From Botryllus schlosseri (lineage: Eukaryota): DNA of 64,000 bases. Below are positions 44,301 to 64,000 of this stretch, piece by piece. The stretch lies in assembly GCA_051294905.1 (NCBI GenBank), contig CM119371.1, positions 13,208,001 to 13,272,000 on the forward strand, in the 5' to 3' direction. The notes beneath the pieces were generated by a model. It did not search any database, was not told where the DNA came from, and saw only the letters and a list, made by a program, of their open reading frames with translations. Within the stretch, counting starts at the first letter, position 1. Each line of letters begins with the position of its first letter. A program made the position numbers and the translations under genes.

Positions 44301-47300
44301 AAGTGATATATTAATGTACATTGTACATGTACACGACAGCCTACCTATCGACGACTCGGGCCACATTATGCCACAATGCTGACGTTTCAAACGTCACCAA
44401 ATGTATCAATTGGGGCAATCAAATGATAAAATAATCCATCGCTTTACACCCAATTTTGTCGCGGACTTGCAAGGGAATATAAACTTGCGCTTTAACGGTC
44501 CACGCCATACCGGACAATGTATTCGGCGTCTGACTATTGCTACATTGATGTTGAGCAGAGTGTAAAACGGGTTTCTTCCGATATTAGCCCTTCAACAAGT
44601 TATTCATTAGTCAACACCCCAATCGCGCGGATTTGGTTTTTATGATACAATAAACATATAAAATCAAGACGGTTCCCGTACGCCAGGTAGATTTTTATAT
44701 AAGAGAACGATGTCTTCTTTATACCAATTTCAGTGATTGTTTAAATAAGCATCATTGTCTGACTATCTACTTGTAGCGTATTTCGCTCTTGATGTCGTGT
44801 GATTGCGGATCAAGCTCAGAACAGACAGTCACTGAATATTCACGAACGGAAAGCTTGATATTTCGAGCAAACTTTTGAAACAAAGCAAGAAAATATTTTG
44901 AGATTGGCAAGCTACATGCTCGTTTAGTGTTGTTGTTTTATGCAGCTAGCGCCATAGTAACCCGAAGTTGATATGCAAAGAATTTCAACCAAAGATGTTG
45001 TAATGACGTAAAAATTGTAATTGTTTGTTTGTTTTGCTTTATCGACATAACAACAGTGGCGCTTTTCGCCTAGTAAGGCCATGTGCCCCACGACAGTAAT
45101 ATTTGTAATAATTCATTGTCTTTGATTTTTCGTCATCTTCCGGGCGACTTTTCACACTCGCACTCTTTCACATCGTTTTTCATGCGTCCGTGTGCATATC
45201 GAAGACCAATATCGAAGACCAAAAAGTCTGTACTGCCGACTTTTTGGCGCGGCTCACCTACATCTGGGCTTTTCAATGTACTGCGACTGCAGTGAGTTCA
45301 GCGATGAGGAGCCCAGCGATACCTCCGACACATAGAAGTTGGTCCGAACCGGGATTCGAACCACTGCCATTGGTGTCGTGACGCTGGTGCGTAACCAACT
45401 GCTCCACTAGCTTCCCCGAAAACATTGTAATTGAAAAGGTTCACAATGCAGAAACTACCAAGGTTCGTTTGTGCACCAGAACCTCTAAATTTTTTAGGTT
45501 CACACACAGAACGCTATTCACACCATTCCTAGTAAATTCCACTTTTGCTTCACTCTTGATGTGGCATGATTCCTGCGTTAGTGTCGACTACACCAGCAAC
45601 ATGTATCGCTAATCGCAGAGGTGGATTGTGGATGTGTACATTGGATCCGTATACCCGATGGCTTGATTTGGTCCCGAATATAGTAGGCTACATACAATTA
45701 TTAGATTATTAATTAGTCGAGCGATCACCTTACGCGATTCTAGCGTGAAATATTTCCAATAGTCAAGTCCTAAACCCTTAATACCGACCGATTTTCGAGG
45801 TCTTTCCTGTCCTTAAAACATGGGGCCGCCAGACAATGGCCACTTCTGAAAACGGTCGTTGGAGTTAAAACAAAAGGTTAAGAACCACTGGGATATAGCG
45901 TTCGGCTCTCGGTTGGTTTAATGTGGTCGAAAATAGGTTCGAATGGCTTTGTATACTGCAGGTAGCGGTGGAAATATCGAAGACCAATTTCATTCATCGG
46001 CATGGAATTGTTGCTACAGTTCAATAATTGTTATATCCAACCTTTACGTTGAAGTACCCTTCAAATTTAATGATGGGAAATCTCTCACTCTGGCAAATTA
46101 TATTGATGACATCTTTTTCGTTCTCCAATTCAATGTAATATCCTTCTGCAGTTAACACGAGAACCTGGATATTGTCGAGATGGAAAGTTTGAGATCGTGA
46201 ATACTATCGGTCATCGACCAAAACCGTGACGTCTTATCACAGATACATTGACGACATAGATTCCAAGACATCGGCAATACCGTAAATCGTAAATGGAACA
46301 TTTTTGAAAATACACCAGATAACGGAAGTGAAACATAGAACGGATTCATCGTTCTTCAACGGCTTCATCGGTCAATATAATAGCTTTACTACTTGTCTGC
46401 TGAATAATGTGATCAAACCCACTTCCCAATCCAATTTTCCAGATTGCGATCTAATCCGACTATGTCCAAGAAGTGAACGCACGGCTGTTGCTGTCGAATT
46501 GTTGCCTGTCAAACGTACTTCTTTCACCTGGAACGATGAACATGGTTTATGAAATGTTGAGAAGAGTTCAGTCCGACAGTCGGTGTGAAATCGAAATCAG
46601 CGGTCTCGACATCCAAAGTCACTGAGCCAGAATCCTATCTATTGTTGGATGATCTAGCCACAATTTAGTCGACATTACAATACGATATCTCGTAATCCGT
46701 GATTTTAGGAATCTTGTCTGTGCATAAAAATTTCCTGCCTGACTTATAACACTGAGCGATATGAAACGAATACGGCTCGTAGACTGGAAAACTGGACAAT
46801 ATGAACATGTTAGGTGTGAGCATGGGAACAAATAGCATGCGATGCTGAAGTATGCAATACTTCTGCATGTGAGATGAAGTTTGGGTCAATCATGTTTTTG
46901 TCAGAGCAAATAGGTCTCGTTCGAATCTGGACAACACTCATCACACATGAGTGGCGAATAGGTAGAAGTATGGTAAATGAACTCTTAATTTGTAAAATTT
47001 CAAGCCACAAATGCGGATATGGAGTCCACTATGGCAGATGCAGAGGGGGCCTTTCGTGCTTTAAATATAGGAAGCTCGTCACCAAACATATCTCCCTCAT
47101 GTTCGGCTGCCTTTTACACATGATGAGTAAATTTTCGTTCTCCGCGCATTGTGTATTGCTACTGCATCCGACACATGCATACATATTAATAATATTATTA
47201 ATAATAATTCAAGGCTTTTCAGTGGCGGTTATAGCCTTTTTCAGGCCTTGTGCACCGCGACATGGATACAGTTCAGTCATTGTCTTTTTCAGTATCTTCG

Positions 47301-50300
47301 ACTTCTTGCATCGTTCTTCAATCGCTTTGTAATCGTTCACTTTCATATCACTCTTCACTCTCCCATGCATTCAACTTCGGGTCTCGGATGCCGACTTTTG
47401 GCAGCGTACGTGGTATACTGTGTTTCTGGGCATTTTTTCAAGACGCTGTTAGTACAGTGGGATCATCGATGAGAAGCCCAGATAAACCTCCGAAACATAG
47501 AAATCAGCCCGCACAAGGATTCGAACCAACCACCATTGGTGACGCAGCGCAGGCGATTTACACACTGGAACACTCGCATCCCCATACATACATATAGATA
47601 TCAAACTCCTGAAATATTGCAACGGACGAACAATGAAGCATTACTGCTTATCGTGTGGCTGGTGGGATTGCTTCAAATGCCAATCGTTTCCGAAATGATC
47701 TCGACTATATTTAGTCAAATAACGGCTGAGCAGCGTATATATTTTTTGGATTAACTTATTATCAGGGCGATTTTTTTCACATTTGAAATAAAAAATAATT
47801 GACGCAATAATTAGGAATTATGACAGTTCTCGAAATTAAAAATCTTAATTTTGACACAATTTCGACCCCCAACGAACTAAACTAGTGAAATTACGCAAAA
47901 GAACACATCCAGCAGCAAAAGGTTTCAGTACGATGAAGGGTAGTTTTGGTAATTGGGTATATTGAAAACAACACATCGTTATCTAATTGAAGCAGAGCAT
48001 GAGTAACCGCAAAGGTTATGATAATTCAAGCCGTCGCTTCGGCAACTGTTGGACAGCATGCAGGCACAACTATCGTATTAACGATATAAATTTGAGTTGG
48101 TGGGATCAATTTCATATGCTAATGGAAGGATATTAGAAACAGTCTTAGTTTTTTACTTTCGTTTCTCTATAATTGTGCCTACGTAACTTATTTTTCAGTT
48201 CAAGCTTTCTTTTAGATACATTTCTCGTATCGGAAGACAAAATGGTGTCGCTTGGGCTCCTCTTCCCCCGCCGTTGCCTTTCTTACGGCGACAAAAAAGC
48301 CCAGTAAAAGAGCCGACGAAAGAAAGCACTCACAAGGAATGGAAAGAACTAGTAGAAAGGGCCGCGGCTTCCAAAAAAAAGATCAACATCGAAAAGAACT
48401 GTGACATCGGGCACTCTAGGCCGAGGTGGATGTTAGAGTAAAGGATCGCTACTGATGCGTGTCGTTCGACATCCTCCTATCTGCCCATGACATCGCATTG
48501 TGTCTTATCGCATTGTACATTGTGTGTGACTTGTTCAGATAAAAATAATAACCCAACGACGTTATGATGTTATGAATTCATTTTGGTTTGAATTAGGGTA
48601 TCGATCAAATGCTATTGTCGCACTGATTCCTAAAATCCGAATATTAACAATGTCAGAGCACCAGAACCCCCTCAAATTTGCCAACGAATGTGAAATTCGA
48701 CTTTGTTACGTTCAATGACAACGCAGAAAACAGTAGCGAGGTGAGGCACAGACGAATCTGACTCTCTCACTATTCGCTAACAATCGGATATTCGCAGCAC
48801 AGTGAAACACGCTATTGATTTCGGAAACCTGCAGTATTGTATACATCGTGGAATTACGACCGCCAATTCGTAAGGCGGAGCAAATACATTCCATTACTGA
48901 TGTAGCCGTAACCCATAATGTATTTTCCCTCCATTCCTACCTTAAATTGCGGTATGTAATAGCTACTTACACAGTCTGCGTTGTTTCTTTGTTTGTTGCA
49001 TTTATGATCTCTTCGAATACAACTGTCATTTATTACACCAGGCCGATATCCTACATCTTCCCCTTTCTAAGATTTTGTAAGACACATCTTTCGCGGATCA
49101 GATCCCGAGGCGGAGCCTATAGATTGCCTGCGTCTGAAGATGGCTAATGTGATAAGAAACAGGTCGCCATCTCAATCAGCTAAACTTTCGTTTATCCTTC
49201 CATAATTTTCGTCGAGCAATCTCTATTAAAATGTCTGAATATTTCACTAAAGGGACAAATTGAAATATGTATTATCGAATTGCAACGGCTATCAGGGTGC
49301 CGAGAAAACGCTTTCGCCCATCCGATTTTTTCGCTTCTGTTGTTATTACCATATTTGTATGTGTGAGCGTATCCTCATCAGGTACTTTACTTTACTTCAA
49401 CCCTTAAAATAGTCGGTTCAACATCAATACCACAGATATTTCGTCAAAGGAGCCATATTTACCCTACATTTTCAATTTTCAATGTCACTCCACTATGACG
49501 TCATAATTCGATATTCGTGATGCCATGGCTTGAAAAAAAACATGTGTTAAATGGGGCCTTGTTTTAATTTGATTTTTGTTTTAAATGCAACCCTATTGTA
49601 CGTGCGTGTGGGGGAAGGGGTCAGTGTCTCACCAGTCACAAACATCATCGCACGTCACTGCATCGTACGGGTAAGTTAGTCGACACGACGAAGCTTATCT
49701 GATCCTTGTGCTATCGGCATTTACGCATGTACTTAACCCTCATAAGTTAGAAAGTTACCTCTAAAGTTTGTATAATTTCCGACCACTTTTACTTTCCTGG
49801 CCAATTACACTCCTGACTGCTTGATAGTTGAGAGTATGGAAATCTTCCCATCATACACAAGCTTCTTTACATATGGTGATATTTAACGCGATTCGTTCTA
49901 ATTACACTACCAATTTCAATTATTTTTTTTCGGTTTGGGTTTTGACAACTGATTTTGGCTAATTTTGGGGCGTTGAATCCGAAAATGGTGTCAGATTTTC
50001 TCTATCACATCACGTTATTGAGATATGAAATATCCCTAATTAAAAAAAAAATTTGACTCCCATCTGTTTTCAAAACAAGGAATTCTGGTGCAATAAACAC
50101 TGTTTCATTTGCAATAATCCAGCTTTAATTAGCAAACAAGCATTCAATATTATAATTCAAACAATTTGCGCTGTCTTTATTAAAATTTCAAGCTTTTGAA
50201 TAAAGACAGGCATGCAAAAGAGCAACTCCCAAAGCTGGTACAAGCGTGACATTTTATCGCAATGAACAATGAAATAAGAGTATGAGAGTATCAAAACATC

Positions 50301-53300
50301 AAAACCGTTCTCGAAAAGCTGAAGTACCATGACCATGGCTGGCTCATCTGTCTAGATTTGACAATGGTGAACTTTTTGCTGGGGCAACAAAGTTACTACG
50401 CCGAATACCCATGTTTCCTATGCTACTAGGAGGCTAAGGATCAGCACTGGAACAAAGAAGAGTGGCCTTCAAGGCTCACCTTGACGCCTGGAGCGATTTT
50501 TTTTGACATGTAAAAAAAAGTCAAAATAAGGTCAAAATTTTAGCGTTAAGTCAAAAAATGTCAAAATTGTTTACAAAGACAAAATTTTTTGCAACCTGCA
50601 TTTCGTTTGTATTGTAGATTTTGCGCAATCGGTGATCTTATCGTTTGACAATTTACAGCTTGTAGCCTACTTTATAGCCTACCGTTGCAAACGGCGCATT
50701 GTCTGGTCATTGCGATCATATACAGTCAAATGAAACAAATTGGTTGACACGGTGTTATGCTCAACGTACCGCGATATCTTAAGTGAAGCAAGACTGCGTG
50801 GGCATTGCATAGTTCTTACAAAAATTGAGATGTACACCATTGTAAGAACGAACGAATACGGTGTGTCACCAGCAGTGTACGCACGCACAACTTCAGTGTT
50901 GTCAGCCAACAGCTGCTACAGTTGAACGTTCTTTCTCCATTCTTCTTGTTGCCGTTTGTATATTCATGGTGTTTGTCGACTAAAATGGTCATTTACACGA
51001 GGCCGATACTCCTTATTTTCGATTCCGTATCCGCCGAGTATCTGCCGACTTGTAACACGGCCCACTTCTATGCTTTTTGTAAGTCACCGCTTACGCGGAT
51101 GAGATGGCGAGGAGGAACCTAGATAAACCTTCATCACTTTGTTAGGAATTCTGGAGTCGACCTCGGTCGGACTAGAACCCACAACCCATTGGTGTTGTAG
51201 CTGTGGATTATCCCACTACGCTATCTCGCCACATCTCCATCCTTGGCCAGCTACTTAGTAAAGACAGATACTTTTTACCCGAGAATCAGGGATATCTAGA
51301 ACTAGATATTTAGATATCCCTGCCGAGAATGTAGGAAAGTATCTTTCGTGGTATTACAACAAATTTTAATTATTTTTACCAAACTACGTCATGTACTGGA
51401 ATTCATCATAGGGCCAGATTTTGTTAAAATAATATTTTGTTATGTAAAAATTTGTCAGTTTTTGAGTCAGAAAAGTTTTTTCAGGGAAAACTACTTCGTA
51501 AGGACAGACAGTTCAAACCAGTTCTACCATTTTTTGGGAAAACACCTAATTTGCATACGTTAGGTCAAAATTTGGTCAAGATTTAGTTTTTTTAAGTCAA
51601 AAAATGTCAAAATTTTGATTTTTTAGGTCAAAATCTTTCGTTTTTTAGGTAAAAAAAATCGCCCTAGTAATCAGTTTGTTGATATCAATAAGATCATCTT
51701 GCCTCCTCTTCACATCAAACTTGGTCTCATGAAACAATATGTAAAAGTTTTGGATCGTGAAGGGGAGTGTTTTAAGGATATATATATGTTATGATTTTCT
51801 AGTCTCAGTGAAGAGGAAAAAGAACTGGGATTTTCAATGGACCTGAAATTAGACAATCGTTAAAGGATTAAAATCTTGCATATAATCAATGCTGCCATTC
51901 GATGCTAGAGCTTGGAATGCTTTCGGTGCTGTTTTTTAGGAAACAGAAAAGCAGAAAATTATAAAGATCTCTTAAGGGAGCAACTGCTTAGTTTTGAAGA
52001 TTTATTGGCATGCAGGATGAGCATCAAAGTTAACGATTTGAAGAGATATGCGGATTAGTTTCCAGAACACCTTGGGAAAGTTAGTGAAGAACAGGATGAA
52101 CGTTTCCGCCAAGATATTAAAATTATGCAGGCACGTTATCAAGGTCGATGGAATTTATAGATTGATTTGTGTTTCTCACACCAGTGAGAATCCGGTACGA
52201 GCAAGGACAAGTACACAGTCGCCACCTGTACCTGGATTTTCATATGATAGCCGAATATTGCTGGAGTTGGAAAAGAAAAATTCCAGATGCTGCTCGTAAA
52301 ATAAAGTCCCTCAAAAGAGCATTTTTAAGCTTATAAGTGAAGAGTTCATATTTTATGAAAGCTCTTTTTGGATTGTTTCTGAACTCGCCATGCCCAAGGC
52401 CCTGTCTTCAGAATTTCTGCACTTCATTGGAATGTCTATGTGCATATTGTGTGAACTCTATGCTATAATTCAGATAATACCTTGTTACTTTCCTATCGAC
52501 ATGTTCGTCAGCATAATGTAGCTTTTGATTTTATTATGGTTGCTCTTTTGCATGCCTATTTTCTATTCCGGGGCAGAAAATTTTTATAGAGACAATGCCA
52601 ATTTGTGTGAATCTAATATAGAATGCTTGTTTGCTAATTAAAGCTGGATTATTGCAGGTAAACCAGTGTTTATTGCATCATAATTCCTTGTTTCGACAAC
52701 AGAGGGGGGTCAAAAATTGATTTTTTTTTAATTAGGGATATTTCATATCTCAAAAAGGTGATGTGATAGAGAAAATCTGAGGTCATTTTCGGATTCAGCA
52801 CCCGAAAATTAGCCAAAATCAGTTGTCAAAACCCAAACCTGAAATATTGTGTAGACCAGTGTTATTTAGCTTACACAGCCTATATATTAATTCTGCCACA
52901 TTATCATGTCATTCCTTTGTGACGTCTTCAAGCCCGCATGCCCGCACACGCACGAAAAAGTAGCGTTCAGCGCCTTTGACGGACCCCTGATAAATTACTG
53001 CTGCACTAACGCCTGTGAGTTCGTATTTACCTACCGCACGATATTCGATTGCAGTTCTTTTGTGCATAAGCTTACATGTATTCGATCTCTCAGACATCCC
53101 GTAATGATCGCCAAAAGTTCATCGTTGATTTCGCAGTACGACAAATTGAAGAAATTCAAATGTTTAGTCCTTGCCGCCAGCGATCCAACGATATGAGCTT
53201 CATCGCGACTCAACGAGATCTGAGATGCGTTAATCACGGAGAGTTGTTTGATAACCACGTCGTCGTCTGTTTCGTAAATTGCCGCATACAGTTCCATACG

Positions 53301-56300
53301 AACGTGACTGTCCTCATTCTTATCAAGTAGCAAATGAATCGATCGAGAAAGAACTTTTTGTTTCAGCCATCGATTTGAGACTGTCAGGCAAATAAATACA
53401 CTCACAAAATGTCGTTGAAAGCGGGTGAATATAGATACGTGTTACGCAGAGACATATCGGCAGGGATGAAAGGCATAATTGCCCAAATGTCTTCGACTCG
53501 GACGTCTGTTTTCACTTTGCGACTCAATAAATCCATGGCATCATGTCATTGTTGTAAAATATCGAATCTCGGCCTATCGCTCAAATTACCAAATGCTCTC
53601 GGCAGATTTTACCCATTACTACGATGCCAAGTGTGCGAAGACCATCAGTCACAAACTCAAAATGGATAAAGACTGACTTTTCCAACTTGAAAGGCGCCGC
53701 GGGTCATAATCTCTGAACAGGTATGAGCTATAGGCCTACGGTTTTACGGCGGTTTAACGGCACTGCGTCAATCAATGAACTGTTTTGCTATGAAACTTGG
53801 GTAATGTATAAATTTACTTTAAAACTGAAAAATTCAGATATCATGATGACGACTAGGGTTTTGATTTCATATATGAGCCACACCCGATGATTGTGAACGG
53901 TCAGCAGCAACTAAAAACTCTGTATTGGGTCAAATTTGTCGTCAGTTATATCAAGATCGTTTGAAAATGTTCGTCTGCCTGTGGTGAAATTGAGGACGAT
54001 TATTTTCTATTCCCTTTGTGACTTTGTTGAGATAAGGGACAAATTGCGTTGCCTATTCTAAAATGCTTCCGATCACGAAACTTCAGTTTAATGGCCTCTG
54101 ATCAAGTCCTGAACACGGATAATCTGTAACCTCTTGTAGCATAATACTGAGAACCGTATGTTTCGTTCTGAATGCAATAGTTGCAAAGCAGTTGATACAT
54201 CGGGTTCGGTCATTATACTCCGAAACAAAACAGTACCCGAGTGTCCATGAAATAGTCTGATTTATGGTCTGCTCCCGCATTTTTCATGTTGTAATAAATG
54301 AGCGCAACTTAAATTGAGGCCTGTACGGGTATTCGAATGCAATACGCAGTATGGATGCTAAAATACTGAGCGCCCAATAAGTCAGTGAAACGGCATCGCT
54401 GTTGGCGGATCGGTGATGGTTTATATCAGTGATTCTTAACCTTGTCTCCAGCGTCCCCCAGGTGGCGATTTGGATTTTGAAGGGGGCGGAAACGCTCAGT
54501 GGGCTAAAAGGGGGCGCTGGACTCAGGGGGCGGTATGGGGGCGGGGGACTGACGAAAAATGACATCGCAGTAGATGATGTAGTAAGGTCATATCATTATA
54601 TAGTGGAAAAATAGTTCTATATATATCCCTGAGTTTTCATTGCAAACTAACAATGAGGGCCGAGTTCAAGTTTCGCAAGTTTCGCAAGTTTCATGCGATT
54701 GATGAGTGCATCTATCGAATCGTAAGCCTAGTATTGGTATATCGCGGATATGACAGGCATCACTGTCATTATGTTGGATGATACATCAAAAGACAAGTTG
54801 AGTCCAATCATAGTTTGTCGAATCATAAAGCATTCAGTCCTCACGAAACTTACACACATGCGACAGACGAACGGTCGACTTTAGTTGAAAGCAGTGCTTT
54901 TCAACCTTTTTGAGCTCCATTCGCACTTTTTTTTTGAAAAATAATTTCATTCGCACCAGTCAGCCGAAATTTAGTACACGGAAAGAAAATGAAGAAACTT
55001 ATCCCTTTTGTATTCGAAGAGCTTGTTAGCTTCTTGGAGGTACAGAGCTTCATTATTTTGCATTCAGCGACTCCCTTGTTCTCAAGAAGTTCGTTGCATT
55101 TTCCGAGGGGTATTGTGCAGTGATTTCCTTGGAAGCTTAAAGGGCGAACCCAAGAACAATATTCACTCGCAACAATATCACTTTGCCACTAAATCCACAT
55201 GTTACGTCATCGCGATGTGAATGTGTTTGCATTTAGAACGCACAAAATAGTGAAACTGTACTTGAATCGTAGCATCAATATTGCGACTAGCACCTTTGAT
55301 TCATTTTTCTGACAACATTCGAAAAGATGCTTCGAGTACTAAGGTATGTTAGATAGGGTTACTATACGTCCTCATTTAGGAGGATTTGTCCTCCTTTTTC
55401 GGGTTTTTGAAAATGTCCTCCGAGGACGCCTAAATGTCCTCCTTTTTGTGATTTTGTCCTCTTTTAAGGAATTTGTCAAATTTATAGCAAAATTCGACTG
55501 AGATGCCGTAAATCAGAACCGAAGTGGCGCTCCGGAGGGTATTTCGGGAGCTGAGCCAAAGTTGACCTTTTTTTAATTTTAGTCCTCCTTTCCCAATTCC
55601 AAAATATGGTAACGCTAATGCTGGTCGATTGGAGGGTACGGTGGGCGTTAAAATCAGGAATACATTGCTATACAAACCCTCACAATCCGATTAATTGATA
55701 ACTGTATTTATGGATAAGCTTATAGGCTAATTCACTTCTAATCTATGCAGTACACAAATCAACATATCTTTCAATAACAACGTTCGGCATCCTTGTGTTG
55801 TCAAAGCCAACACTTTCACCTTCTTGAAAAATTATTACTCACATAAGATTCATGTGTTATATCGGCCCGGGTAGCCAACGGCGGAATGGCTCCTATAAGT
55901 CAATCGTACAATATTGGAAAACTGACTGAAATAATGCCAAATTATCTGTACTATCCCACATATCCTTATACATAAAGAGTAATAAGGTTCAACAGTCTAA
56001 TTAAGCTTAAATTAGGCTGCATAAGGAATATCGTAAGACATACGGCTTGGTGGATTTTATTTTGCTCTGCAGAGGGTGCTCACTGCTCACTGCTCATCTG
56101 CTCAAGCTAAACCTGTAGAGGTCGGAGTATTACAAAGTTTTTAGTACAAAGGCGGTACAAACACGAACTAGGCAAACTTTTCCTATGGATCAACAACCTT
56201 AGTGGAATCACCACTATGTTATATATAGGCATAAGCCTTTACGATCCAGGCCATTGCACTGGTCAGTAGGTAAACTGCCCAGTGACTTAATAATTCGATG

Positions 56301-59300
56301 TGATGTGAGATAAATATTCATTGGACGTAAGACACTAATTTGCCTACACTAATTTTATTTATAGCAGCCACTAATCCTTGGTTAGGTGCATGAGTAAACA
56401 ACACTTGTTATAGATCTAATGTGCTAATTGTTATAGCTGAAGAAACGCTAAATTCTACTGTTAACAAACATGAATGTGTGTTAAAATTCCAATATTTTTC
56501 ATTCAAATATGCCAAATGTCAACGTTGGCATCAGCTACTATTACCAACATTCCTACAAGGTCCGTATACAATATCAACACACGGTGGATGTTTCCGAGCA
56601 AGTGAGCAACTGATACCGATTGAACTCCTTCTTTTTTCCATGCAGTGACGTATTCCTCTTGCACGGAAATATTATCTCAAACTTTGCATTATGCACGCAT
56701 CGGGAGCGTTCCTCACTTGTGAACTAGAAAAGCCTAGCTACCAACAAGTTTTTAGAATTGCTTCCAAACGACAAAATTTACGTGCTCACTGTACTTAATA
56801 TCGTGTTTATTTGAATTATTCCACGTCGGAAAAAGTGAGAAACATGGACAATTTTCATTCGCACTCATCCGGATTTTTCATTCGCACCATTCGCACCACT
56901 CTTGCCGTTCGCACTCATCCGGGTTTTTCATTCGCACCATTCGCACCACGCCCGCCATTCGCACTGAAATTATTTTCATTCGCACTAGTGCGAACCGTCA
57001 CACAGGTTGAAAAGCACTGGTTGAAAGTATTTTTGATTTATTGATAGGCTGTGGCAAGTGAGAGACGTTCATTGTAGCAGCCTATCATACAGACGCATTA
57101 CGCAATCTTTCACCAGCAACTTGGCCTCCCTTTCTCACCCCTTGGCAATGATTCTCTCCGAAAATCTCATCATTCGGCATGGTAAGTTATGCGGATTAGG
57201 CAACTCCTGTATGGCGGATAGTTCCACTGCATTCGATCCTTCCAAATGAATGAATTATTTGGTCCTGGTTAACGTATACAGTAGGGATGGTGTGAACGTG
57301 AGGTTCACGTTTGCGTCCTGTGTGTGAACTTCGGAAATTTAGAGGTTCGCGTTCACAACAGAACCTTAGCAGGTTCTGCACGGTGACCCTTTTTCATATA
57401 TTACAATCTTCACGTCATTATAACATCTTTCGATCAAATTTATTGCATTTCAACTGCGGGCCACTCTATGCATGGCGCTGGCAGTATAAAAAATCAACAC
57501 TAAACGAGCATACACTTTGACAATCTCTAAAGTTTTACTTGCTTTGTTTCAAAGGTTTCCTCGAAATATCCAGCTTTCCGTTTGCGAAAATTTAGTGACT
57601 CTCTGCTGTGACCTTGACCCGCAATCACACAACATCACGAGCGAGATGTGTAGTTAGTGAATGATGCTTATTCAACTATATCAATGAGATTGATATCGTT
57701 TTCTAGCAGGCGTGCGGGGTCAAACTTGACTTCATATTTTTACTGTATCATTAAAACCAAATCCGTGCGATTGAGGTGTTGGCTACTGCTGTATAACTTG
57801 TTAATTGGGTAATATCGGCCGCAAGTATATAGAAACCCGTTTCACACTCTGCTCAATATCAATGTAGCAATACTCAGATGCTGAATTCATTGTCCGGTCT
57901 GGCCTCGACCGTTAAGGCGTAAGCTTATACTCCCTGGTAAGTCCTTGTCGAAATCGCTGGCTAAGCGACGAAAGATATTGATTTTATCGGAATATTATAT
58001 CCTTTGATTGCCTCAGTTGATACATTTAGCGACGTTTAAAACGCCAATATGTACTTCAGCATTATGTGGCCTGAGTCGTCGCTGGGTATCGTGTACACTG
58101 TACAGTAGGGCTGTTCAAAAATGACTTTTTTTCCTGAATGTTGTTGGCTACGTGATTAAATCGTTAGGTTGCCTTAAAAAACGACGCTCACGAAATTTGA
58201 ATTCATTCCAACCAATATTCGCTGGTTTCGTAGAGTTTGAAAATTTTGAATTTGCCCAAAAACGCAAAAAAATTTTTTTTTTCAAATTTTTCTGCCAACC
58301 CCATGAAATTGTTGGACTGTCTTCAAAAACTATGCAAAACAAATTTGACTTAATTCCAAGCCGTAGAAGTGGAGTTATTCTAGTTTTTCGATGATAATTC
58401 TTGGATTATCCACCGATCATGGATAATCCCAGAATTATCGAATAAAAACGGCCCTACTGTACAGTGTACACACTCGTGGCCGTTCTCTTTTTCATTTAAA
58501 GGTCCTGGAATCTACGATCATAAAGCTACGAAAGCCGATTCTCTGTCGCCAGAAGGAACGCCTCTACACTCTTGGAATATTTCATTAATGTTATGTGTTG
58601 TGTTTTCGGTTATTTATAACCGAATATGTACTCGTTAACATTTGTTTTGTACCGTTACTACCGTATCTAGCCCGTCTACTAGTTGTTTGTTTTTGTTATT
58701 ATTACGTCATACAGACAAAATAGTTCTTACATTTCGAATTTGATTCACCCCATCACTAACGTTCGCTACTGATGAGAGTTAGTCGAAAAGCTTTTAGCGA
58801 ATAAATTAACGTTAGTGTACACACTGTGTCACAATAATATAGGCTAGGGATTGGAATTGACAATATGACGTCACGAGGTTCACGTTCGCGTTCACACAGA
58901 ACCTTTGAAAAAGGTTCGAGTTCACACGAACCTGAACCTTTCAGAGGCTCACACCATCCCTAGTATACAGGACATGGATATGATCATTCAGCAGTAGCCT
59001 ACTTCAAGCGAATCCACCGGAATAATTATGTCACGACAAAAATGTCCTGCATGAAGGACGACGTACTACGACTGCATTTCTGAAAAAACGTACATCACCG
59101 AAAACAATATTATACGCCATGACTCACCTTCATGAAGATGATCCCGCGAGGTATCGTAAATGATACCGCACACGGATCTGCGGACAGCCAACCATCGCTC
59201 TTTGTGAAGGTGTTTATAGTTGAAGCTCATGAACTTTACAAGCGCCATTTCAGCTACAAAGTCCGCTGCAAGAAATTCGTGCAGACTTTGATAACAGAAA

Positions 59301-61169
59301 ACGAAACTGAAATCGCCCTCCAATTGATTGCAACAGATGAGTTTATTTCCAGTAACCTTTATCATGAGATCACGAACTTCCTCTTTTGAAATTTTAAACA
59401 TTCTCAAATCGTTTTCATTGAATACCATTCTTTCTTCTTTTACACCACGATAGGCTATCGCTTTCAATTTCTTGATAACTTCGACGATATCCGCAACTTT
59501 TTTAATGTTTTTCACGCCAATCAGAGTTGATATGATTTTTTGGTAAAGTCCTGTGACCGTCATAGGAGGGGATTTATTCGGATCATTGGCCATTATAACG
59601 GCGGTTGAGATCAGAAAGACAGGAACGGATAATAAATTGAGTAGCCATGGTGACATCCTGGCTATCTTTTCCCACACTTTATCCCCATCCGGACCTATCA
59701 TAAACACGAAGAGCTTCTGTGCGTCGTCTAACGTCAGACCAGAAAGCGTGATGATGTCGGCAGGTCGCGCTCCTGCGCGTAACTCCGAGATTTCAAATTC
59801 TCGCGAAGAGATGACGATCTTTGTATCCTTTAGTAGATTACGTGATAGAATATTGTACATGATCGTTGCTGCGTCGGTTAGGGTGGATGAATTTATGATA
59901 GTGTCGCTCCTGTTATTGATTTGCCACGAAGCCTGATCGAAACCGTTGAAGAATAAAAGTGATTCTGATTGATTGTTGAGCAACCACTGATATGCATGCT
60001 CTTCATCGACTTCATTCCAACAGAGGCCGCCGAATAGAAATTTAGATGGTTTCATTATTCCCATATCTTGTATGTCTTTTATTTCTATGTAATGTATCAA
60101 TTTGTATTTGAGCTGACAGGGGTCTGAAATGTATTCTGTATTGGAAAGTGAATGATCCAAGGCCCTTTTAGCGATTCTGCGAATGAGAGTTGTTTTCCCC
60201 GATCCCGCAGACCCAACTATGGCGGTGATTGAACTTTCATCCTTGATATATCGTTCAAAAACTTCATCAATCGTACTGAATTTTTGGTCATCAAGTTTTT
60301 GTTGCAATCCTACCTCCATCGTAAATTGATTTTTCACCAATTGCTTCTTTTGTCGCAAAAAACATTTTCTACTTACTGAGACCTCCGTGTTCCGCAACTT
60401 TTCACAATTGCATTTGTAATATTCTAAACCACTGACATGCCTCATCTGAGGATGAACTTCGAAATCCGGTTTCCTGAGGTTCTCGGCCCACATGTTTTCA
60501 AGAATTCTGTCCGCCGTCTTTCGCGATGCATTTTCGTTGATGTAACTAATCAGAGCTAAAGAAAGATAACATTGTTCTTGATTCGTCACAAATGACTAAT
60601 GAAAACGATAACATGTCATCTGTTGATTCTACTCTTTTCTTTGCGAACACTTCCATATCCATGACATTCACTATCTACTATGGCTAACATATTTTGGAAA
60701 GCTGAAAAAAGGACACTTGTTCAAAATTTTCAGCCTTGCAATACCGGAGGAAAATCCTGAAAAAATGGTAAATTTTTTGCACTTCGTGGTCGGTTGACTA
60801 AAAAAAGAGAAAAAGTCAGCTTTGCTGCTCGGCTCCCGCAATAGCCGGCCCAGCATTACTTCAGTGCTGATTTACTGTATCTCAATCCAATTTGCCCCTA
60901 TATTTAACTGAAATTCTCAAAAAAGAGGACAAAATATCAAAAAAGTGGACAAATCCTCTTAAACTAGAGCGTATGGTAACCCTACTATATGCATGGGGAC
61001 GATAACCAGGAGTGAGTGTGCCAATAGAGGGGCGAAGCACCAAAGCAGGGGTTACGACATGATGTGCGAAATTATACGATGTTCTGTCATATTCGCGAGA
61101 AGTTACTTTACTATGAAACGGATTGGTTGGCGAATGCGATTGTGAAACCTCAGAAGAATTATTGGGCAT
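32368..61169 (-). CDS. NACHT-domain (NLR-like) protein gene, about 900 aa. Firm exons 59128-60595 and 53076-53380; likely exons 46423-46527, 46042-46164, 43394-43534, 39351-39521, 38875-39070; tentative exons 61107-61169, 43260-43319, 36258-36312, 32368-32425
   Basis: NACHT motifs in the large exon; a phase-consistent AG/GT exon chain gives a stop-free frame ...DHLHE|VSNRWLKQ...RDRIH|VKEVRLTGNN...|VLVLTAEG...|ESALVFKV...|VDLMDIAV...|IEYMRCIF...LEFLE|FCRQITN...FYD|SVNTELMHTKEEDVSLQQS*. Small exons are manual predictions. Confidence 0.6.
32832..33346. mobile_element. hAT MITE
   Basis: Ends cagcggttcc / gaaaacactg; perfect TSD ctctacac; GGGCGA subterminal motifs. Confidence 0.8.
37953..38218. 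mobile_element. hAT-type MITE, TACTT-repeat family
   Basis: TIR cagaggtggtca / tgaccacctctg; perfect TSD gatattac. Confidence 0.9.
38875..39521 (-). CDS. NLR gene, two predicted exons (39351-39521 and 38875-39070)
   Basis: catcaag|VDLMDIAVNGQTYC...EACQQIK|gtagta and ctgcag|IEYMRCIFENGFRASFEEIRSLVNNSNFKKVTLIYMKAVDKLKGDELKKAQKIANDLDTELEFLE|gtaagt; both overlap protein-like track ORFs. Confidence 0.6.
40757..43250 (-). mobile_element. Older Chapaev3-like transposon relic, split by a hAT MITE
   Basis: TTA-CACTGGTCAAC terminus at 40757; minus-strand remnants GYGKKNKYYIHY, SSELLTSLRSEKRLL, VYCRD..GLL*ELGI, YQEHDWIICVSFEILCFL and HMLADYC, in the expected order. Confidence 0.65.
41495..42468. mobile_element. 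Young hAT-type MITE with AGTCA/GACTCGAGTC arrays, inserted in the Chapaev3 relic
   Basis: TIR cagtgttgggat / atcccaacactg; perfect TSD ctaagacg. Confidence 0.9.
43394..43534 (-). CDS. NLR gene predicted exon
   Basis: tcacag|ESALVFKVSPNLPSVLYLGLLFEAKFLEHLYANKKELPELSKSKLEK|gttagt; 141 nt, phase 0-0. Confidence 0.5.
43741..44090. repeat. Diverged tandem duplication of a unit of about 175 bp
   Basis: ataaatggaatga...aatcgcattag..tcgctggcaacc occurs twice (43741 and 43916). Confidence 0.7.
44170..45510. mobile_element. Degenerate copy of the GAACC/GGTTCAC hAT-type family; also at 57282-58962 and at the window start (about 40-130)
   Basis: Inverted homology to 57300-58950 over several hundred bp; a SINE is nested at about 45130-45412. 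Confidence 0.65.
45130..45412 (-). mobile_element. tRNA-derived SINE family 3 (second copy about 47340-47570)
   Basis: Reverse strand gctagtggagcagttggttacgcaccagcgtcacgacaccaatggcagtggttcgaatcccgg; body shared with 47340-47570. Confidence 0.7.
46042..46527 (-). CDS. NLR gene, two predicted exons (46423-46527 and 46042-46164)
   Basis: ttccag|VKEVRLTGNNSTATAVRSLL (LRR pattern LxxLxLxxN) and atccag|VLVLTAEGYYIELENEKDVINIICQSERFPIIKFEGYFNVK; both phase 0-0; donor choice uncertain. Confidence 0.6.
50995..51230 (-). mobile_element. tRNA-derived SINE family 1
   Basis: Reverse strand ggcgagatagcgtagtgg...gggttctagtcc gaccgaggtcgactccag; homologous to 8629-8855. Confidence 0.75.
51287..51322. mobile_element. 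36-bp minimal TIR element
   Basis: 12-bp perfect TIR cagggatatcta / tagatatccctg, 12-bp core, perfect 8-bp TSD ccgagaat. Confidence 0.85.
53076..53380 (-). CDS. NLR gene exon: HD2 end and first leucine-rich repeats
   Basis: MELYAAIYE...INASQISLSRDEAHIVGSLAARTKHLNFFNLSYCEINDELLAII fits the ribonuclease-inhibitor-type LxxLxLxxCxI pattern; phase-1 acceptor tgacag matches the NACHT exon donor; gtaagc donor. Confidence 0.85.
54892..57019. mobile_element. 2.1-kb non-autonomous hAT element with ATTCGCAC subterminal repeats
   Basis: Perfect 16-bp TIR cagtgcttttcaacct; perfect TSD gttgaaag; nested family-B MITE at 55354-55617. Confidence 0.88.
57282..58962. mobile_element. hAT-type element (TAGGGATG TIR) with a nested MITE at 58106-58456
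   Basis: TIR tagggatggtgtga / tcacaccatcccta with perfect TSD gtatacag; inner TIR tagggctgtt / aacggcccta with perfect TSD ctgtacag. Confidence 0.9.
59128..60595 (-). CDS. NACHT NTPase exon (NBD, HD1, winged helix)
   Basis: 507-aa ORF: Walker A AIVGSAGSGKTTL, Walker B-like SLLFFNGFDQ, sensor-1 IVISSRE, LSGLT, LLSVPVFL (GxP-like), WH FVFCYQSLHEFLAA; acceptor tttcattag, donor gtgagt at 59127. Confidence 0.92.
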
Positions 61170-64000
61170 TTCAATATTCAACTTGACGGTGTAAAGTCTG
61201 GAAGTAATATAAAAAATCAAGATCGAGATACTTCTACTTTATCAACTCGTGACTATCTACCGATAATAAAGTCACTATCGCTCGCATCTGGCAGAAAATG
61301 TCAACAATCATCAACTATTCAACTGAATGTTAAATATACTTTGCGAGTGGGGCTGTGTACAACATAATCTTCAATCAATCTAGAGGGAATCTATACATGG
61401 ACTATGGACTTCAAAACATCGCGCCAAATATATCGATATTCACAAATAATGGCTCTGAACCTTCTCGCAAACAAAAATGACACTTTGAAAAGGTTCCTAG
61501 CCGGCCATAGTCAAATAACTGCATTTGTATCTGCCATTCGCGAAATATTGCATTCAACTTTTCCGCACACAAAGCATAAAACATACTGTAAGCATTGGCA
61601 GTTTGGGTGAATAGTCATCGATTACACCTTTTCTCTGGTAAATAAGAGGATTTGGATTCAATCTGTTCTGGCCGCGACGTTTCGTCATTGAACAATATGT
61701 CAATCACTGGGTGAAGCTATCGCGCTAAATAGCTGTAATATTTCCAAAACATAAAATCCCAAGGGGCATTAGCACCAGTCTGCACCTCCTGGTTACGTTC
61801 ATGTTTATGCTGTTATGTTATTTGATGATTAGCAGCTTTTTGAAGTGCACGGAGTCATAGGCGCCGACTTTTTTTTTTACGAGGTGGCCTCATAACTGTT
61901 CCATATCGATGACGTCATCGTCGCACTAAAACGCACTTTACTACATGCTGCTGGTTTACGTGCAGCGTTAAATTATTCGTGTGGCGTTTTAATACCGGCC
62001 CTGTGATCGTTATTATCAAACCATGCAGTCGAGTTATTACGGTAAATGGAATCTTAAAACGGTACGAGTACGATCGTACGAAAATATAACTGCGCTACTA
62101 GTCTGTCCGACGGAATGCACCGAACCGAAATCAGAATTTACGTCACTGAGAGTTTGGTGTTGTATCAATGTTATTCACGCGTAATGTGCTGTGGTGTGAG
62201 TAACTAAATACGCTACGCCCTGGCCTGGCAAGTTCGCAATTAACACATGACAACTCTTGAACATGCGATTTCAAGCAGACAATAATGATGATGACGCGAA
62301 ATCGCGCAGCCAATCAAGAGTTGTCTATTGCGATTGCTCGCTTCGCGTTGATTACCTCGCATCGCGGCAATTGTTTGCAGATTAAAATAGCGATTTTGGC
62401 GGCATTGTTACATTTCCGCTTTACGTTCGTGAAGTATTTTGGGAGTACATCGGTCAATTCATAAATTCAATTTGCATGTCGATGGCCGCCAACACATACT
62501 AATTGACTTACGTGTTGACAACTGCACAAATTTCCTTCTACGGCCGCTGGTTGGCTACCCCTGGGCTAGAACTAATTGCACTTCCGTGCGCATGTCGCGA
62601 TCTTATCAATAGAAATTCACCGGCTACCAAATGTCCAATAGTTTAATATTCGATATTGTTGTTCTCAATACGAGTACATCCAGAAATCAAGTTGATCGGA
62701 ATAAAGAAGGTTGCCTGTTCAAACGAATCGAATAAAATCAGAATTTGTGCCACCCAGAATCTCGTTATGCATCAATATTTGACAATGGCATGGCATCGCC
62801 TACTGCACGTTAATAACGAAAGGAACACTGAGAAATGACTTCGTGCAAATGTATCAAGTCGAAAACAAAAAATATGGATGGTTGCAAACGAGAAAGCGTG
62901 TGTTCTAATCAGTATCGCTACGAATGGGTTTTGCGTTTGATATAGTATTGAGAAGTATTAGTCGCGTCAATTGTTTACTCATTATATCGGTGTTTTATTG
63001 CTGCATTTTCTGATTTATCTCACTGGCAAAGCCTTCTTAGAGAAACGAATATGCGCAGAAATTACGAAAATACGATTACGAAGACTATCGCACGAAGCTA
63101 GCTAGCTTAAGAATGGTTTTGTAAACGAATGTGGGCGCACATCATTTAGATTTTAGAAAAGCAGATCGTCTATTTGGGCGGATGGTCGGGAGAGGAGATC
63201 TAGGATGGTGTTCATGTTGACGATTTTACGCGTATGATAAGCTTGCCAATTAGTCCGGAAGTGCTGTCAATTATAGAGTCCCTGATCTCTGGTGAACAAT
63301 TAAATACGCGCTCGTATTACGCAGCCTCAATGACAGTTTTGGCAAATCAAAATGTCCCAACTTGACGGCACTGATTTCAGGTGGTTCAGACCTGTGTAGT
63401 TTTTTAGAGCTCAATCCATGATACACATCTTCTGATAGTTACGTTCAAGTATTAGCGGGAATCAATTACGCACGTTAAAGTCTCTTTGCAGCGATTCGAT
63501 GTTATCCAGTTTTGCGATGTGGCTCTTTAATTAATGTAACATAAAACGATCACCAATTAGCGTAAACTCGACCGCATTGTCTCCAAACCAGCGAGAGATA
63601 GAAGCCAAAGCATGCTAGGTCCGAGACGCGATAGGTAAGCCAGCAATGGTATCTTTCGCACCAGGCCTATCGCAGATGCTCAATGCTCATTGCTCATGTA
63701 TATGCCAGCGATGACATCGTGTACGCCAGGCCGAAGCTGCCAATACAGATGCGATTGCGCAGGCAAGCGATGGTTTAGTGTGAGCTGAGCCTATTGCAGA
63801 TCTAGGCTTGTTCGAGACGCGATAAATCGGGCTAGCGACGATTGCCACGCTCACGGGAATGAATGACCTAATTTCGCGACCATTTCAGCGGGAGATCGTC
63901 AAAGAATCTTCTTACTAATTGACAACATGCTTCTCGTAAACCGGCCCCGCGGAACAATGATAATACAATTATTGAATTGCAACTGGATATTAGAGTTAGA

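Follow-up and report, generated by a model that had tools for sequence, protein, structure and literature searches.

The subject of this study is a NACHT-encoding exon on the minus strand of a 64,000-nucleotide stretch of Botryllus schlosseri DNA (the window; C1:13208001-13272000 of a 495-Mb assembly, G000), in which the P-loop is intact, the aspartate of Walker B is replaced by asparagine and the sensor-2-like histidine of the winged-helix domain (WHD) is replaced by tyrosine. The analyses described below support the conclusion that the canonical nucleotide switch of this gene, hereafter the target, is disabled, and that selective constraint upon it is relaxed but not absent. We hold with moderate confidence that the target is an old paralog, single on its branch, in a lineage-specific and very large family of NACHT and leucine-rich repeat (NACHT-LRR) genes, and that it has been maintained under relaxed constraint; of the 211 candidates in the genome, at least 87 were scored as copies.

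Substituted residues in the nucleotide pocket

Translation of the window gave an open frame without stops over minus-strand positions 59066-60595 (509 codons), and the exon within it encodes a protein that matches the Pfam NACHT family (PF05729) over residues 124-296, with 58.7 bits compared to a gathering cut-off of 26.7 (E 8.4e-16). The exon and the pocket motifs that it encodes are as follows.

59128..60595, minus strand: exon encoding NACHT, helical domain 1 (HD1) and WHD (P0001); 489 codons plus 1 base, no stops, 489-residue translation
60188..60214, minus strand: Walker A, or P-loop, GSAGSGKTT, intact; agrees with GxxxxGK[ST]; Gly at the first position, where the family has Ala (A128G)
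59933..59959, minus strand: Walker B region LLFFNGFDQ; Asn217 (AAC, 59945-59947) for the Mg-coordinating Asp, Phe219 for the family Leu
59801..59803, minus strand: sensor-1 Arg (ISSRE), kept; SRE or ARE in 87 of 87 copies, R265 invariant in family alignment A1
59264..59299, minus strand: WHD patch FCYQSLHEFLAA; Tyr435 (TAT, 59291-59293) for the sensor-2-like His, His439 for the conserved Gln

An earlier note on this DNA, made from its letters alone, had reported the intact P-loop, the AAC codon in Walker B and the TAT codon in the winged-helix motif, and all three were found in the sequence where it had placed them. The signature D[GAS]hDE (in full hhhhD[GAS]hDE), given as NACHT-defining in the excerpted text of bioRxiv 10.1101/2022.07.19.500537, is departed from in the target at two positions, the first Asp being Asn and the final Glu being Gln, the latter a substitution that is the norm for the family. 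Similarly, the patch FxHxxQEhxA of the nucleotide-binding and leucine-rich repeat receptors (NLRs), which contains the sensor-2-like His and typifies the NAIP-like STAND subfamily (PMC2323615), is altered from His to Tyr and from Gln to His, with the other patch residues retained. Three further changes within these same motifs, L219F, Q439H and A128G, are confined to the target.

Comparison with solved NLRs places the two principal substitutions at functional positions. The best solved relative by sequence was rabbit NOD2, in which LLTFDGFDE aligned with LLFFNGFDQ of the target. A profile of 54 family sequences (alignment A1) matched human NLRP3 with E 3e-30, and aligned the family lDGlDq with NLRP3 MDGFDE (within LFLMDGFDE) and the family fFchqslqEflaA with NLRP3 FIHMTFQEFFAA. 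An AlphaFold2 model built on A1 reached a predicted local distance difference test (pLDDT) of 78.9 and a predicted template modelling score (pTM) of 0.78, and a Foldseek search with this model returned ADP-bound NOD2 first (E 5e-18; query-normalised template modelling score, TM, 0.68), together with NLRP3 (1e-15) and NLRC4 (2e-13). Residue 217 closes strand 212-217 of the model and residue 435 directly precedes the WHD helix 436-448; as modelled, the two residues stand where one would expect the Asp of Walker B and the sensor-2-like His.

Rarity of the two residues among relatives

A six-frame search of the genome with P0001 yielded 211 candidates, including 87 scored matches (43-100% identity, the target among them), all of which were aligned. 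The 86 other copies share 43-67% identity with the target in this search (E 1e-118 to 1e-203; 49-68% in a second comparison), and all 86 have DGLDQ in Walker B, while 84 have the WHD His and the remaining two, L022 and L025, have Asn. The pairing of NGFDQ with Tyr thus occurs in only one of the 87 copies, the target. For public relatives, HMMER was run over the full set of 1.84 billion representatives and gave 360 matches, the best 150 of which were combined with proteins from homology searches to give 158 sequences aligned to the query. The P-loop Lys was present in 140 of 141 of these public rows, the Walker B Asp in 151 of 153 (Ser in one, Glu in one, Asn in none) and the WHD His in 134 of 145 (Tyr in four; Pro, Glu, Thr, Gln, Asn, Phe and Arg in one each). 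The earlier note had called for alignment to paralogs and relatives in case Asn and Tyr were usual in this clade; they are not the clade norm, and their combination is unique in all sequences examined.

The same alignments corrected one of its premises, that a NACHT Walker B ends in DE. The norm in the target's own family is hhhFDGLDQ, in 86 of 86 paralogs and in Styela clava too, so the final Gln is no lesion of the target. This residue (Gln221 in the target, 59933-59935), which occupies the position of NLRP3 E306, is Gln in 89 of 154 public rows, Styela clava included. Because the E306Q mutation cuts NLRP3 ATP turnover to 0.22x and gives more ASC specks, as stated in the excerpted text of PMC9633759, the DGLDQ clade as a whole may, by analogy, be slow-hydrolysing.

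The nearest named relatives are proteins of the ascidian Styela clava, with 30-33% identity to the target, two of which read FFFDGLDQ and FFSHQILQE in the two motifs. No ortholog was found, relatives in the homologous-protein searches having at most 46% identity and the best match among the HMMER representatives likewise 46%. A limited search of the literature on tunicate NLR expansions found nothing on degenerate NACHT motifs in tunicates.

Loss of the WHD His arose at least twice in this genome, once in the target and once in the pair formed by L022 and L025. These two copies (G000:C10:12429940-12431412 and G000:C10:12594168-12595631) lie 164 kb apart and constitute a second His-less lineage, with a common His to Asn change and a Ser to Cys change two residues on. 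Among the public relatives with both motifs aligned (n=133), a degenerate extended Walker B was seen in 4 of 10 His-less as compared to 8 of 123 His-bearing proteins (Fisher p 0.006), by criteria of our own, with relatedness uncontrolled and with predicted proteins that may include pseudogenes. The target is thus a further instance of a double degeneration that recurs.

Ten long relatives were scanned for an N-terminal effector domain. One public representative of 1184 amino acids (P0015) had a weak N-terminal Death-domain match, with 23.9 bits compared to a cut-off of 22.6, and the other nine had no recognisable domain there.

Relaxed constraint on the target branch

In the protein tree of the 87 copies the target splits off early within a clade of 28 copies and forms a singleton with the third-longest terminal branch, at 0.37 substitutions per site compared to a median of 0.09. 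Codon evolution was analyzed by maximum likelihood (ML) for 30 copies and 473 codons, using our own likelihood of the Goldman-Yang (GY) type with F3x4 codon frequencies and a fixed IQ-TREE topology. The ratios of non-synonymous to synonymous substitution (dN/dS, or omega) and the log-likelihoods (lnL) were as follows.

One-ratio model: omega 0.327; lnL -18498.10
Two-ratio model: background omega 0.317, target branch omega 0.636; lnL -18490.37
Target branch fixed at omega 1: lnL -18493.29

A separate ratio for the target branch (dS 0.233, dN 0.148) improved the fit significantly over the one-ratio model, with twice the log-likelihood difference (2dlnL) at 15.5 (p 8e-5), and fixing that branch at omega 1 made the fit worse by 2dlnL 5.85 (p 0.016). 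Pairwise ratios by the method of Nei and Gojobori (NG86), taken against 17 core copies, point the same way as the codon ML result, being 0.37 for the target and 0.20-0.27 for four equally deep copies. Counts of codon differences from the most probable ancestor (42 synonymous and 127 non-synonymous) were rejected as a measure of dN/dS since they undercount synonymous change in comparison with ML, and were used only for the spread of changes over subdomains.

When each of 57 branches was in turn taken as the foreground, omega was significantly raised only in L025 (1.67), L022 (4.39) and the target (0.63), and no copies other than these three lack the WHD His. For L022 alone, omega differed from 1 with p 0.022; L022 and L025 taken jointly had an omega of 1.42, with 2dlnL 46.9 over background, which was not above 1 (p 0.13).

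In-frame stops were found within the aligned stretch of 5 of the 87 copies. The four stop-bearing paralogs in the 30-copy set (L011, L014, L026 and L030) had ordinary terminal omegas of 0.23-0.28; these copies are pseudogenes of very recent origin, null alleles or sequencing errors, and the visible pseudogenes of the family are therefore young.

We also asked how much neutral evolution the target branch could contain. A switch of omega from 0.32 to 1 would have to cover ~47% of the branch to yield the observed 0.64. In simulations that placed neutral substitutions on a paralog exon of 1,425 nt, with indels ignored, the frame stayed open in 4 of 1,500 runs (0.003) when 47-50% of the branch was neutral, and in 0.04, 0.14 and 0.25 of runs at 25%, 15% and 10%, respectively. 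Since the frame survives in just 0.003 of simulations at the required neutral share, a long-dead pseudogene is disfavoured.

Read support and gene structure

Four runs from one sample, the probable source of the assembly, contain 0.98 of the sampled words of the NACHT exon, and a Logan contig from a run of that sample spans 59192-60764 with 0 differences, 0 gaps and a depth of 13. As this reads-derived contig is identical to the assembly over both codons, and carries the AAC and the TAT that the earlier note had wanted checked against assembly error, a consensus error at either codon is unlikely. In a run from another sample (X5) the exon had a word depth of 9-14, in pieces (59627-59925 and 60451-60768) that span neither codon.

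The remaining elements of the gene, as far as they were recognised, are listed below.

60596..60597, minus strand: putative 3' splice acceptor, an AG inside the TAG at which the frame is closed upstream; from sequence only, without RNA support
59122..59127, minus strand: 5' splice donor GTGAGT; the NACHT exon ends in phase 1, and the phase fits exon 2
53076..53380, minus strand: next conserved coding exon (exon 2; end of HD2 plus first LRR), open; acceptor AG at 53381-53382, donor GTAAGC from 53075
46396..46527, approximate boundaries, minus strand: LRR-type exon (VKEVRLTGNNSTATAVRSLL...), open; open reading frame 46372-46596; collinear with 3 of 6 paralog regions

The description of the NACHT exon in the earlier note, as stop-free with clean splice sites, held up: an AG at 60596-60597 precedes it and GTGAGT follows from 59127. 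In most paralogs the open frame begins at the point homologous to this acceptor. The donor phase fits the next exon because the final base G of the NACHT exon and the TC that starts exon 2 form an in-frame GTC codon, which restores the frame. Exon 2 lies within an open frame (53031-53441), a pyrimidine tract precedes its AG, and it is collinear with six paralog regions; its homologues were found at 138 or more sites in this genome, lying downstream of NACHT exons at a distance of typically 1-2 kb (once 5.5 kb). Pieces homologous to the LRR-type exon (~46396-46527) occur in at least 112 places. The two downstream open exons look LRR-like by sequence, exon 2 had no Pfam LRR match, and the exons are not joined by a transcript. 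No in-frame stops, frameshifts or broken splice sites were seen in the three exons, the 5' exons not having been located. Searches of the window by tblastn with the C-terminal halves of the Styela clava proteins gave no match besides the NACHT exon.

Several further candidates were rejected. The tblastx matches upstream of the NACHT exon were repeat-like and present in all frames, and thus not accepted as 5' exons; a Met at the start of the NACHT exon in some paralogs is not conserved and was not accepted as a start codon; and matches in the flanks, found in all six frames and both orientations, were read as repeats.

The intron that follows the NACHT exon (59128-53380) is ~5.7 kb long, as compared to ~1.0-2.1 kb in five of the six paralog regions and 5.5 kb in the sixth, and its extra length is due to repeat insertions. 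Very high-copy repeats lie in the introns and flanks of the gene (48003-48669, 50671-51337, 57341-59341 and 60676-61342), with word depths summed over the DNA runs of 25,000-150,000, and RNA reads fall on these repeats from both strands. Loose ends at 48253 (GGTTCGATTCCC) resemble a tRNA in its 3' part, and the repeat there may accordingly be a tRNA-derived short interspersed nuclear element (SINE).

Interpretation and alternatives

Taken together, an omega that is doubled yet below 1 and the preservation of frame and splice signals are easier to reconcile with a protein kept for a reduced or altered role than with a pseudogene that died long ago. By analogy with mutants of NLRP3, NLRC4 and bacterial NACHT proteins, the intact P-loop would still allow the target to bind nucleotide. 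Hydrolysis in the absence of the Walker B Asp would be very poor, slower even than in its DGLDQ relatives, and loss of the WHD His would remove the ADP latch of the closed state. In the excerpted text of PMC9633759, ATP turnover of NLRP3 is 0.19x wild type for D302A and 0.17x for H522D, compared to 0.86x for H522R, and the excerpt of bioRxiv 10.1101/2022.07.19.500537 describes the WHD His as touching ADP and so stabilising the inactive state. On these analogies the target would be a non-cycling NLR, no longer a sensor cycled by ATP and ADP, and the role that it has kept could be that of a non-cycling partner, a regulator or a decoy.

Several observations weigh against this reading. The change from Asp to Asn is a CpG transition (TTC-GAC to TTC-AAC), the likeliest type of mutation, and therefore calls for no selective explanation. 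The target departs from the family at 18 of 128 columns that are at least 95% conserved, the highest count of the 87 copies (next 11, median 2), although this measure favours long singleton branches. The 127 amino-acid changes inferred on its branch are spread over all subdomains without focus on the pocket. That omega lies below 1 is a marginal result (p 0.016), obtained with our own model of one omega per branch on a tree whose nearby support is weak (bootstrap 66 and 92), and neutrality confined to the last 10-15% of the branch fits the open frame (P 0.14-0.25). Read support for the two codons comes from the probable source sample only. Neither a 5' exon nor a start codon was found when 60596-64000 was compared by tblastx with the six paralog regions and the paralog upstream regions were compared with each other, and the gene as recognised may thus be incomplete. 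Finally, no RNA reads fell on the three exons (depth 0 in bins 59342-60675, 53339-54005 and 46002-46668) in two bulk RNA sequencing (RNA-seq) runs, of which ~6.9 and 9.2 million records, or ~6% and 12%, were sampled without a paralog control; a listing of sequencing runs that contain the exon named no RNA run, a blank that does not itself count as evidence.

Many of these same observations suit the first alternative, a possible if doubtful one, namely that the target is already non-functional, being unexpressed and in early decay with a frame that no stop or indel has so far interrupted. Zero RNA depth, the record number of departures at conserved columns and the CpG origin of the Asn are all expected of such a gene, as is its position as a singleton locus outside the family clusters, and this is a family that does yield pseudogenes, as the stop-bearing copies show. 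The doubled omega can be read either way: decay would account for it only with ~47% of the branch neutral, a history that rarely leaves the frame open, and an omega of 1 is itself rejected, whereas a neutral phase restricted to the most recent part of the branch would agree with a frame that is still open. The splice signals and the phase show no damage, two further exons have open frames, and the stop-bearing copies, unlike the target, show no rise in omega. The earlier note had offered lack of transcription together with dN/dS near 1 as an outcome that would count against its proposal; the first part is what the two partly sampled runs show, but dN/dS is 0.64. From its proposal of a hydrolysis-dead, pre-activated, decoy or decaying NLR, the common core of a disabled switch under relaxed constraint is retained; sequence cannot distinguish an inert protein from a regulator or decoy or from one that is constitutively open, nor choose among the pre-activated, decoy and decaying forms.

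A broader view, which we consider unlikely, is that loss of the switch is a recurrent and retained state in NLR expansions, and that switch-less NLRs make up a class with a function, acting independently of nucleotide as partners, decoys or regulators, similar to the sensor NLRs of plants. It would take in the two separate losses in this genome, in the target and in the L022/L025 pair, which alone among the 57 branches have raised dN/dS, and the joint occurrence of His loss and a degenerate extended Walker B among public relatives. The sensors of plant sensor/helper pairs have degenerate P-loop or MHD motifs and work through a partner without a nucleotide switch of their own; they belong to a different STAND (signal transduction ATPase with numerous domains) subfamily, NB-ARC. 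No adjacent partner gene was seen in the window. If this view were true, nucleotide-independent NLRs analogous to plant sensors would exist in an invertebrate chordate.

That the His to Tyr and Asp to Asn changes together lock the target in an open state, signalling-competent or partner-dependent, and were fixed by positive selection as a neofunctionalised, pre-activated NLR, seems to us distinctly improbable. Mutants of the WHD His are indeed hyperactive in some systems, with H443L and H443P activating NLRC4 and the equivalent bacterial NACHT mutants behaving likewise (excerpt of bioRxiv 10.1101/2022.07.19.500537), and NLRP3 E306Q raises ASC specks; most NLRP3 Walker B and sensor-2 mutants, however, fail in signalling according to the excerpted text of PMC9633759. 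The coincidence of the three raised-omega branches with the three His-less copies, the high omega of L022 and the association of His loss with a degenerate extended Walker B are what such a history would produce, but the target itself gives no signal of positive selection, since its omega is below 1 and its changes are evenly spread over subdomains. Selection would as a rule remove a death-type receptor that is constitutively active, and the two partly sampled RNA runs contained no RNA from the exons.

It is highly improbable that both codons are errors of assembly or sequencing, or that Asn and Tyr are normal for the clade, for although each change is a single transition and the only confirmation by reads is that in the probable source sample, the Logan contig and the four runs agree with the assembly, the clade norm is Asp and His, and the 127 amino-acid changes inferred in the same exon make the two codons part of a general divergence.

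Significance and comparison with known systems

The expansions of NLRs in invertebrates are mostly uncharacterised, and the share of copies that act as ATP-switched sensors is unclear. The target is a clean and datable case in which the Mg ligand and the ADP latch were lost and the frame was kept, and together with L022 and L025 it suggests that loss of the WHD His marks a changed selective regime. If expressed, the His-less copies would be natural switch mutants in which the dependence of NLRs on nucleotide cycling could be tested; if unexpressed, the target would record the sequence of events in the decay of an NLR. In both cases the finding is incremental and does not define a new system.

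Natural NLRs without the Walker B Asp or the WHD His are already known, and the loss of such residues as constraint weakens often happens in families of this kind, so that the target does not represent a novel type of receptor. Human NLRX1 (NOD5) reads LFVLHGLEH and has no winged-helix His (PMC2323615, Table 2 and text), CIITA, NLRP6 (NALP6), NLRP8 (NALP8) and NAIP also lack that His (PMC2323615), and the excerpted text of PMC9633759 gives NLRP6 a natural acidic residue at its position. These functional NLRs show the same kind of departure as the target, with NLRX1 also missing the Walker B Asp. They are conserved orthologous genes with known roles, whereas the target is a single divergent member, its dN/dS raised, of a family that underwent recent mass expansion, and its sequence relationship to them is no closer than the NACHT fold.

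With NLRP3, NOD2 and NLRC4 (7alv, 5irm and 4kxf) the target shares the fold made up of the nucleotide-binding domain (NBD), HD1 and WHD, and the P-loop, sensor-1 Arg and FxHxxQEhxA patch can be aligned. It differs in having 12-17% identity, N-G-F-D-Q in place of D-G-x-D-E, Tyr for the WHD His, His for the patch Gln, and few detected LRR exons. With its own DGLDQ-type NACHT-LRR expansion, which is present in Styela clava also (P0002, named by NCBI 'NACHT, LRR and PYD domains-containing protein 1a allele 5-like'), the target has in common the large NACHT exon, the exon that follows it and the LRR exon type, and it stands apart from this family by its Asn and Tyr, its long singleton branch and an omega of 0.64 as compared to 0.32.

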